The position numbers were made by a program, and so were the translations under genes. The notes below the pieces were generated by a model. That model was not told the DNA's origin, did no database searches, and worked only from the letters and a program-made list of their open reading frames with translations. Below, piece by piece: positions 13,635-15,051 of a DNA stretch of 32,000 nt. Positions within the stretch are counted from its first letter, which is position 1. Each line of letters opens with the position of its first letter. The DNA comes from an uncultured Spirochaetota bacterium (GTDB lineage Bacteria; Spirochaetota; Spirochaetia; SZUA-6; Fen-1364): NCBI GenBank assembly GCA_963734545.1, contig CAVTHO010000006.1:146537-178536 (forward strand). The letters run 5' to 3'.

Positions 13635-13958
13635 CTAGCAGCAGCCTGCCTTCGAGCCCGTGGCGGCGCCTTCTGTCTCCGCCCGCCCGCATGAGCAGGT
13701 AGGCTCAGTTCCCCGCAGCATCCCCTGGATCACCGCGGCGGCGCATCCCACGCCCGCCTTTACCTTGATCGCACCTGCCGCGCAGTTTTTCATGCACGCA
13801 CCGCACTCCATGCAGGAGAGCCGGTCCGCGATCGTCGCCTTGCCCCCCTCCATGTCGAATACCGCGTGAGGGCATACTTCGATGCATTCCCTGCAGCCGG
13901 TGCACAACGCGCGGTCCAGGGAGAGAGTCTCTCCGTTCTTCAGGTATGTCATCCGCAC
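13635..13958 (-). CDS. hgcB: HgcB, 2x[4Fe-4S] ferredoxin of the mercury methylation pair
   Basis: Intact 107-aa ORF 10 nt downstream of hgcA. Two CX2CX2CX3CP-type motifs: CTGCRECIEVCP and CMECGACMKNCA. It has a conserved internal Cys (AGVGCAAAV) and a C-terminal vicinal Cys pair (ends GCC). Confidence 0.88.
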   Translation of the reverse strand: MRMTYLKNGETLSLDRALCTGCRECIEVCPHAVFDMEGGKATIADRLSCMECGACMKNCAAGAIKVKAGVGCAAAVIQGMLRGTEPTCSCGRAETEGAATGSKAGCC

Positions 13959-13968
13959 AGCGCGCCTC

Positions 13969-15051
13969 CTACAGCGGCAGGATCCGGGTCACCACGGTCA
14001 GCCCGAGACCGGCTGCCAGTGAAGAAATCATGGGAATGAGTCCCCTCTTCACCTCCAGGGCCGCTCCCGGCTGCGATGTGAATGTGGAGGCGCCCGTAAA
14101 GTTCATGGAAAGGAACGCCACGATGGGCATTGCCACCAGCGTGAGCGCTACTGCCCCGGGGAGGGACGTCCGCGCGGCTAGCGAGATCGCGATTCCCCAA
14201 AGCGCGCCGAGGAACGCGCCCTTGAGTGAGAAAGCCCGAAACGGAAGAAAGGGGAGGAGAGCGGGGAAGAGGAGGGTCCCCACCCCGACCGCGCCAAGGA
14301 GCGGGAGACACGCGGCGAGCAGCCTCCCCCCGTAGCCGGCATCAAAAGGCAGGCCGAGCAGCGCGGACGCTGCCACGATGCCAAGCAGAAGGGGCCATGA
14401 GTGGACCAGCTCGGTCGGCGCAATGGCCATCCGTTCGGTCAGAGGGAACAGGACCCTTCTCATCGCGTCGCTTTTTTTCAATCCGTTTGACAGGAATGGG
14501 CGGATGTCGCGGGCGCGCACCGGGCCGAACTTCACCTGCCAGCCGGTGTCCCGCTTCACCTCGTGTGCCGAGACCCCGGTCGCACCGAGCTGGGGGAGGA
14601 TAAGCGTCCTGTGCGACACGACGTCCGGGAGCTTGACCGCCATTATCCGCTGCTCGAGCTCCCGTGTCCCGAATGTGCCCTTTCCCGCGGCGCACCACAC
14701 GTTGACGCCCTTTGTGTCGAGCACGAGAATCCACGCATCGATGCCGTCGAGCTCCTTGCGAAGCTTGTCGAATGTGAGCTTGTAGTTGGCCGTGACCAGG
14801 ACGGGAGACTCGCCTGTCGGCGATCCCACCGCGTACAGGCCGGGGAGAACGGCATAGCGGGACCTGCCGATGTCCCACCGCACCTTCCAGCCGCCCATGA
14901 CGTCACGCCAGGTCAGCCGTGTCGAGACGACCGGCACTTTCCGATCACGGGAGGTCACAAAGCCGGTGACATATTGCCGGCGCTGCCGGGAAACGGCCTG
15001 CAGCGAAATGACCGGTGTCTTCCCGCATCCGCACGCAGAGGATTTTTCCAT
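13969..15051 (-). CDS. hgcA: HgcA, corrinoid protein of the mercury methylation pair
   Basis: Intact 360-aa ORF. The diagnostic cap-helix motif N(V/I)WCA(A/G)GK is present as GVNVWCAAGKGTFGT within a CFeSP-like corrinoid-binding domain. It is followed by a hydrophobic C-terminal half with multiple predicted TM helices: WPLLLGIVAASALLGLP, LLGAVGVGTLLFPALLPFLPF, GALWGIAISLAA, LTLVAMPIVAFL, ISSLAAGLGLTVV. Confidence 0.93.
   Translation of the reverse strand: MEKSSACGCGKTPVISLQAVSRQRRQYVTGFVTSRDRKVPVVSTRLTWRDVMGGWKVRWDIGRSRYAVLPGLYAVGSPTGESPVLVTANYKLTFDKLRKELDGIDAWILVLDTKGVNVWCAAGKGTFGTRELEQRIMAVKLPDVVSHRTLILPQLGATGVSAHEVKRDTGWQVKFGPVRARDIRPFLSNGLKKSDAMRRVLFPLTERMAIAPTELVHSWPLLLGIVAASALLGLPFDAGYGGRLLAACLPLLGAVGVGTLLFPALLPFLPFRAFSLKGAFLGALWGIAISLAARTSLPGAVALTLVAMPIVAFLSMNFTGASTFTSQPGAALEVKRGLIPMISSLAAGLGLTVVTRILPL

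Follow-up and report, generated by a model that had tools for sequence, protein, structure and literature searches.

The window analysed here is a stretch of 32,000 nucleotides from the assembly of an uncultured Spirochaetota bacterium (positions 146,537 to 178,536 of contig CAVTHO010000006.1, GCA_963734545.1). On its minus strand lie hgcA and hgcB, which can be regarded with high confidence as a bona fide HgcA-HgcB mercury-methylation pair and as the last two genes of a unit with the order marR-like regulator-hgcA-hgcB. The initial annotation of this DNA had recognised the pair but not the regulator gene 5' of it, with which the pair, at the distal end, forms a three-gene unit. The identification of hgcAB is correct and well supported but routine, because hgcAB carriers are already known from this phylum, to which it contributes one further putative methylator; several earlier reports describe hgcAB in Spirochaetes-like bacteria (PMC7438021, PMC7536318). 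The regulator and its putative operator form a module of modest additional interest. The control of hgcAB expression and the purpose of the genes are open questions in mercury biogeochemistry, and hgcAB gene abundance is a poor predictor of methylmercury production. A compact regulator that lies nearly always directly 5' of hgcA, together with a cysteine signature and a putative operator, makes the question of hgcAB control directly testable.

The hgcA and hgcB genes

The hgcA gene (13969..15051, minus strand) encodes a membrane-anchored corrinoid protein of 360 aa. Its ATG start is preceded, at a distance of 7 nt, by an AGGAG-type ribosome-binding site. The hgcB gene (13635..13958, minus strand) starts 10 nt after the hgcA stop codon, with GGAGG 6 nt before its GTG, and encodes a 2x[4Fe-4S] ferredoxin of 107 aa, or of 105 aa if the ATG two codons downstream is used. 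The comparison with hidden Markov models (HMMs) that the initial annotation had proposed as a check places both products above the NCBIfam equivalog cut-offs: HgcA gives 399.1 bits on NF040863 (cut-off 275) and HgcB 112.3 bits on NF040864 (cut-off 99). Because these curated cut-offs are passed, the motif features of the two proteins are not a product of chance. The adjacent, co-oriented arrangement of hgcA and hgcB is found in all 34 hgcA-anchored genome loci compared.

The features on which the initial annotation had relied are all present in the two proteins. The cap-helix motif NVWCAAGK occupies residues 117-124 of HgcA and contains Cys120. Across 41 HgcA relatives N117, W119, C120, A121, A122 and G123 do not vary, and V118 and K124 hardly do. 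Pfam recognises in HgcA only the C-terminal part of CdhD (aa 66-183). The AlphaFold2 (AF2) model of the protein, with a predicted local distance difference test (pLDDT) score of 80.8, consists of an α/β domain followed by five long helices, the predicted transmembrane helices 219-232, 240-264, 274-293, 297-321 and 328-357; the hydropathy profile, in which the C-terminal half is hydrophobic, agrees with them. The top Foldseek match of the model in the PDB library is 9a0b_A (44% identity over 323 columns covering both domains, E = 3.7e-19), a deposited integrative model of the HgcAB complex and presumably that of the Pseudodesulfovibrio mercurii ND132 proteins (Cook et al. 2020). The closest database relatives of the window HgcA are proteins named HgcA from Spirochaetia metagenome-assembled genomes (MAGs). 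HgcB, which Pfam assigns to generic 4Fe-4S (Fer4) families, carries two CX2CX2CX3C motifs (residues 19-29 and 49-59), Cys72 as an internal cysteine and the C-terminal pair Cys106-Cys107. HMM scores, motifs, fold, adjacency and the match to 9a0b_A thus all support the reading of the pair as hgcAB. As far as the sequence can tell, the pair carries every gene-level mark by which hgcAB is recognised in the field, namely the HMM scores, the cap-helix Cys, a predicted five-helix domain and an adjacent co-oriented hgcB.

The best characterised counterpart is the pair of ND132. Biochemical work on this organism indicates that S-adenosylmethionine (SAM) methylates cob(I)alamin bound to HgcA, in which the cap-helix Cys is the Co-thiolate ligand, that the methyl group then passes to Hg(II), and that the two [4Fe-4S] clusters of HgcB are the source of reducing power; HgcA C93 and HgcB C73, C94 and C95 are essential (PMC11588087). 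Each of these residues is matched in the window proteins. The two systems have in common the gene order, the cap-helix N(V/I)WCA(A/G)GK with its essential Cys, the corrinoid domain resembling that of the corrinoid iron-sulfur protein (CFeSP) followed by five transmembrane helices, and, in HgcB, the two CX2CX2CX3C motifs, the internal Cys (C73 in ND132, Cys72 here) and the C-terminal pair (C94/C95 in ND132, Cys106-Cys107 here). They differ in that ND132 belongs to the Desulfobacterota and the present host to the Spirochaetota, where activity is predicted from the genes, and in that the window HgcA has an N-terminal extension of about 38 residues with a CGCG motif and the window HgcB two extra cysteines, C88 and C90.

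By analogy with ND132, HgcA would be anchored in the membrane by its five helices and would bind cobalamin in the CFeSP-like domain, with Cys120 as the thiolate ligand of the cobalt. SAM would methylate the cofactor to methylcob(III)alamin, from which the methyl group would be passed to Hg(II), and HgcB would deliver a low-potential electron through its two [4Fe-4S] clusters to bring the cobalt back to Co(I). Cys72 and the C-terminal Cys-Cys of HgcB are the likely counterparts of the residues needed for activity in ND132. The standard inference from the genes makes the host a predicted methylmercury producer, as the initial annotation had proposed.

The corrinoid domain can also be compared with the CFeSP gamma subunit (PDB 2h9a, 4djd), to whose C-terminal domain residues 66-188 of HgcA align (46 bits, about 26% identity over about 130 columns, root-mean-square deviation about 2 Å). 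Where the window HgcA has VNVWCAAGKGTF, CFeSP has SVLTAWAAGKF and no cap-helix Cys. Since the solved CFeSP chains lack the Cys at this place, only the HgcA side of the family has the thiolate ligand. The window protein, in contrast to CFeSP, has no N-terminal [4Fe-4S] or TIM-barrel domain but has a membrane domain.

The taxonomic assignment of the contig, also suggested in the initial annotation, leads to the Spirochaetota. About 20 kb of the window aligns with a Spirochaetota MAG, L001, at 88-91% nucleotide identity and with the same gene order, and the order is the same in a second one, L002; these two carry the best hgcA loci among species-representative genomes (90% and 87%, respectively). 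The claim that both ORFs are intact holds as well: in a comparison of the window with L001 and L002 no frame-disturbing indel, and none private to the window, was found in the regulator gene, hgcA or hgcB. The marR-hgcAB trio is under strong purifying selection, with ratios of nonsynonymous to synonymous substitution (dN/dS) of 0.14 for hgcA, 0.06-0.13 for hgcB and 0.06 for the regulator gene (range for the trio 0.05-0.14).

The upstream regulator and its putative operator

The gene upstream of hgcA (15053..15544, minus strand) is co-oriented with it, and a single nucleotide separates its stop codon from the hgcA ATG. It encodes a cysteine-rich MarR-family transcriptional regulator of 163 aa, which matches the Pfam family MarR (PF01047) with 49.2 bits (cut-off 24.6). 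The AF2 model of the regulator (pLDDT 80.9) has the canonical MarR fold, composed of α1-α6 and a β-wing. Its Foldseek neighbours are all MarR proteins, AdcR and ZitR included, and its profile matches 114 MarR chains of the PDB. Within the family C32-C33, Q39-C40-H41 and C112 are invariant or nearly so, and a C-terminal CC (C153-C154) is usually present. On the model the first CC lies in the α1-α2 loop, C40 and H41 in the first turn of α2, C112 in the middle of α5 and the terminal CC on a disordered tail.

The zinc-sensing MarR regulators AdcR and ZitR share this fold and take their ligands from the same three places, the α1-α2 loop (E24 and C30), the first turn of α2 (E41 and H42) and the middle of α5 (E107, H108 and H112; PMC6224198). 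The model therefore suggests that the regulator holds a thiolate-rich sensory site at the position equivalent to the AdcR/ZitR metal site. A Cys-rich set in place of the His/Glu-rich ligands suggests in turn a softer metal, redox chemistry or a cluster. The likeness is one of site location on the fold only: the zinc ligands E24, H42, H108 and H112 are replaced here by a different Cys/His pattern, AdcR and ZitR have no C-terminal CC tail, and the AdcR family model NF038251 gives 18.7 bits with the window regulator, under its cut-off of 175. In AdcR the metal activates DNA binding.

The association of the regulator with hgcA is close. Of the 34 genome loci, 15 have a homologue directly 5' of hgcA and L026 has a weaker match; the linked loci span the Spirochaetota, Leptospirales, Brevinematales, Opitutales and Acidobacteriota. 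Four further homologues were picked because their contigs were absent from the list of HgcA matches, and in all four a gene with a CdhD domain and a ferredoxin gene lie immediately 3' of the regulator. A scan of metagenomes seeded by the regulator alignment alone yielded 80 loci of 45-95% identity. Sequence of at least 300 nt was available downstream of the regulator in 68 of these, and hgcA is the next gene in 66. One of the two exceptions, L076 (1271-2483), has a regulator with the CC...QCH signature followed by an extracytoplasmic function (ECF) sigma/anti-sigma pair and no hgcAB. The same sigma/anti-sigma pair is found beyond hgcAB in L039, so that L076 looks like a deletion of hgcAB which left the regulator in place.

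The linkage of a regulator to hgcA is already known. In 2020 McDaniel et al. described, for 112 genomes, a putative transcriptional regulator that is conserved immediately 5' of hgcAB (PMC7438021). It is likewise directly upstream and co-oriented, and occurs in overlapping phyla (Opitutae/Verrucomicrobia, Acidobacteria and others), but was reported without a family assignment, conserved residues or a DNA site. This regulator and that of the window are very probably one family. MarR-family genes upstream of hgcA have also received a brief mention in Dethiobacter alkaliphilus and Geobacter daltonii (PMC10349881). What appears to be undescribed in the literature searched is the assignment to MarR, the signature of cysteines, the nearly exclusive association with hgcA and the operator; queries for an hgcAB operator, a palindrome or a protein named 'HgcR' returned nothing relevant.

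The only regulator of hgcAB tested experimentally is ArsR2 of ND132 (DND132_1054), an ArsR/SmtB-type protein which is co-transcribed with hgcAB and controls their transcription. ArsR2 resembles the window regulator in being a winged-helix, Cys-bearing protein encoded directly upstream of hgcA. It belongs, however, to PF01022 and not to PF01047, and its cysteines are Cys26/47/49/86/88 as opposed to 32/33/40/112/153/154. Homology of the two proteins was considered and rejected: PF01022 has no match on the window regulator at E <= 0.01, the ArsR/SmtB model NF033788 gives 15.8 bits against a cut-off of 55, and the four-cysteine site Cys47/49/86/88 is not matched.

The AT-rich gap of 91 nt 5' of the regulator gene contains a sigma-70-type promoter, TTGACA-17-TACAAT (15592..15620, minus strand), which agrees with the consensus at 11 of 12 positions; the region upstream of the regulator has four promoter-like sites where 0.9 are expected. 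The putative operator (15569..15611, minus strand) is made up of the palindromes GTTGTAgtaTACA (15594-15606) and GTTGTAattTACA (15578-15590) with a period of 16 nt, detected by Tandem Repeats Finder (TRF) as a period-16 repeat, and GTTGTAgtaTACA overlaps the -10 hexamer. With at most one mismatch the motif GTTGTAnnnTACA has three overlapping matches in the 32-kb window, all at the putative operator (0.09 expected; three matches were reached in none of 100 shuffles). Over 35 loci the density of the motif within 750 nt 5' of hgcA is about 50 times that of the remaining sequence. A TTGACA box stands 5' of the palindrome in 67 of 88 distinct regulator-upstream regions, at a spacing of 8-9 nt in 47 of the 67. 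The operator sequence is conserved from the Spirochaetota to the Acidobacteriota and Verrucomicrobiota, and an overlap of conserved palindromes with the -10 box is seen both in the window and in most related loci; binding of the operator by the regulator is predicted from sequence. The layout is that expected of an autoregulated repressor which would occlude the -10 element.

A distant MarR-like gene lies 5' of hgcA in a Desulfarculia genome (L033, 9400-9764). Its product has a single Cys and no CC...QCH signature, and the gene is preceded by a perfect GTTGTAGTATACA site. This site raises the possibility that the operator is older or more widespread than the cysteine signature.

In the proposed mechanism, transcription of the unit would start at the near-consensus promoter and a MarR-type dimer would repress it by binding the GTTGTAnnnTACA palindromes over the -10 box. 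DNA binding would change in response to a signal perceived by the conserved Cys/His residues in the α1-α2 loop, at the beginning of α2, in the middle of α5 and in the C-terminal tail; this signal could be a thiophilic metal(loid), a change of redox state or the binding of a cluster. A stronger version can be put forward tentatively, with somewhat less than even confidence: the cysteine-rich MarR protein may be a dedicated, cross-phylum sensor-repressor of hgcAB, which acts on GTTGTAnnnTACA over the -10 box and releases or tightens when the CC/CH/C112/C-terminal-CC site binds a thiophilic metal(loid) or becomes oxidised. The ligand might be Hg(II), As(III), Cd or Cu(I). If this is true, the signal of the regulator would show what hgcAB naturally responds to, and hence their native function, and the window copy, which has Tyr for Cys32, would be a natural sensor-site variant. 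The operator motif and the regulator could serve as extra markers for the annotation of hgcAB loci in fragmented metagenomes.

Alternative explanations

Several observations weigh against the reading of the three genes as one regulated mercury-methylation unit. The cap-helix segment of HgcA (aa 115-125) has low confidence in the AF2 model, as is expected of a loop modelled without its cofactor. The predicted co-transcription is judged only from the spacing of the genes, with gaps of 1 nt and 10 nt. A radical-SAM (rSAM) gene lies on the same strand 91 nt upstream of the regulator, making read-through into the unit possible, and no convincing terminator was found 3' of hgcB, where the 130-nt gap folds no better than shuffled sequence (z = -1.19). 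The assembly has local consensus errors elsewhere. The literature describes spirochaetal carriers of hgcAB only as putative methylators, and a search of it, which was not exhaustive, found no experimentally confirmed methylating spirochaete. Finally, the window regulator has Tyr32 (codon TAT, 15449-15451, minus strand) where the others have the first Cys of the CC.

Tyr32 is unique to the window: the residue is Cys in 52 distinct locus copies and in 54 database proteins. The codon is two bases off the TGC of L001 and L002. Because Tyr stands in place of Cys32, sensing by the window regulator may be altered, or else the codon may be miscalled; Tyr32 would then be a genuine variant of the sensor site in the first case and a local error of the consensus in the second. 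An explanation as a basecalling artefact at a methylation motif was considered and is unsupported, as GCWGC sites change at baseline (5 of 20, versus 0.255).

The alternative that survives best, though it is unlikely, accepts the genes as true hgcAB and holds that the host is not a meaningful producer of methylmercury. The pair would be kept repressed, or would have another native role, for example a methyl transfer tied to metal(loid) or thiol stress, with mercury methylation as an occasional side reaction. A repressor-type regulator with a thiol-rich sensor site does precede the genes, and within this alternative it would make hgcAB expression conditional; an arsC-like gene recurs nearby in the clade, and published work on ND132 ties the regulation of hgcAB to arsenic and S-adenosylhomocysteine (SAH), not to Hg, and states their native function as unknown. 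Set against this are the strong purifying selection on all three genes and the conservation of all residues needed for methylation in ND132. To our knowledge, the cultured hgcAB carriers tested to date are generally Hg methylators, which also counts against a host that does not produce methylmercury.

It is very improbable that the hgcAB block is foreign to the genome, either as a chimera of mis-assembly or binning or as a very recent mobile insertion bounded by 25-nt repeat arrays. Such arrays, identical in their unit, do flank the arsC-hgcBA-marR-rSAM block (12911-12993 and 16951-17071), the assembly contains local errors, and in the literature the phylogeny of HgcAB disagrees with species trees, which suggests horizontal transfer. 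However, two Spirochaetota MAGs that were assembled independently have this gene order together with both flanks, and a third has part of it, the GC content of the block is typical of the window save for the AT-rich promoter, no transposase or integrase is adjacent, and the flanks, at 83-98% amino-acid identity, match hgcA at 87-90%. The collinear alignment with L001 over about 20 kb indicates that the block is native to the spirochaetal lineage and no chimera.

Hardly credible, and largely refuted, is the remaining explanation that the 360-aa protein is a non-methylating paralog with an HgcA-like motif, be it an acetyl-CoA pathway corrinoid protein of CFeSP/CdhD type or a fused HgcAB-like protein: Pfam does find a CdhD domain only, and the corrinoid domain shares homology with the CFeSP gamma subunit, but the protein scores 78.9 bits on the CFeSP gamma-subunit model (cut-off 306) and 203.8 bits on that of the fused paralog (cut-off 285), against an HgcA score well over its cut-off, the CFeSP matches span about 130 residues without the cap-helix Cys, the five-helix membrane domain is absent from CFeSP, hgcB is a separate adjoining gene, and the window contains no acetyl-CoA pathway genes.

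Flanking genes, frame breaks and repeats

On the other side of hgcB, and convergent with it, lies a gene for an ArsC-like low-molecular-weight (LMW) phosphatase, a homologue of thioredoxin-type arsenate reductase (13082..13510, plus strand). Its product passes only the general Pfam domain LMWPc (54 bits); on the equivalog model TIGR02691 arsC_pI258 it reaches 107.3 bits, under the cut-off of 174.3. The gene adjoins hgcB only in L001-L003 and in 13 of the 80 metagenome loci, among them L039, L038 and L041. On these two grounds it was rejected as a core partner of hgc, and it is a clade-specific neighbour of hgcB and not part of the core of the unit. Its place beside hgcB echoes the published association of hgcAB with arsenic genes. 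A search of the window against Rfam gave no matches, and thus no riboswitch or structured RNA near hgcAB.

The radical-SAM/SPASM gene upstream of the regulator (15636-16946, minus strand) encodes a protein which gives 262 bits on TIGR04317, a tungsten-cofactor oxidoreductase maturase model with a cut-off of 380. The protein probably serves the aldehyde:ferredoxin oxidoreductase (AOR) gene at about 18880-20877. Membership of the gene in the hgc unit was rejected because it is present in only 5 of the 80 regulator-anchored loci, resembles a tungsten-cofactor maturase and has the AOR gene nearby. Its product has an N-terminal AbrB/MazE-like domain, with a Pfam score of 23.7 bits just below the cut-off of 24.7; genes of AbrB/MazE type are reported to lie directly upstream of hgcA in archaea (PMC10349881). 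The other neighbours in the window encode CheB, an HD-GYP response regulator, CheW, a HEAT/cyclase protein, histidine kinases and a DeoR regulator, as well as KDPG aldolase, the AOR, a sugar kinase and a GFO/IDH/MocA oxidoreductase.

The initial annotation had noted that many genes elsewhere in the window are frame-broken. This is indeed seen: ORFs that are intact in relatives match the window with changes of frame at about eight places, and the indels are visible in pairwise comparison. The shifts lie near 5295, 7078-7590, 10940-10960, 19913-20242, 20997, 24440, 25045 and 27160-27360. In the three-way comparison of the window, L001 and L002 there are seven window-private indels whose length is not a multiple of three, all of them insertions, of 1-2 nt. 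Five of the seven fall within 460 nt (7078-7540), with a net change of +6; another, at 10959, disrupts a histidine kinase gene. Three indels are private to L001, a long-read assembly, and no frame-breaking private indel occurs in L002, a short-read SPAdes assembly. The exclusive occurrence of insertions, their clustering, the breaks in L001 and the absence of such breaks from L002 favour errors of a long-read assembly consensus, which are the probable cause of the frame breaks; real pseudogenisation was judged less likely.

Clusters of single-base insertions are found at 7078-7540, 10959, 19920, 20227-20241, 20709-21200, 21688-21945, 24451 and 25042, and scramble the HEAT/cyclase, histidine kinase and AOR genes, among others. 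In the insertion-rich stretch an in-frame stop codon at 7477-7479 splits the ORFs 6979-7479 and 7486-10146, which jointly correspond to a single ORF of 1049 aa in L003. A metagenome contig of long-read style, L038 (3476-4511), has a frame-broken hgcA in two pieces of 184 and 158 aa.

The 25-nt tandem arrays on either side of the block (12911-12993 and 16951-17071, plus strand) hold 3.3 and 4.9 copies of the unit GCGCCGCGGTATTCCGCGGATTATG, which includes the palindrome CCGCGG-N4-CCGCGG. The unit has six matches in the window, where none is expected. The arrays may be ordinary REP-like elements or may mark the boundaries of the block. Another short repeat, CCCCGAACGGGTAYTCCCGTACCG, is present at 16300-16330, in or near the rSAM gene, and at 18792-18860, between the KDPG aldolase and AOR genes; at the latter site L001 lacks 43-47 nt.

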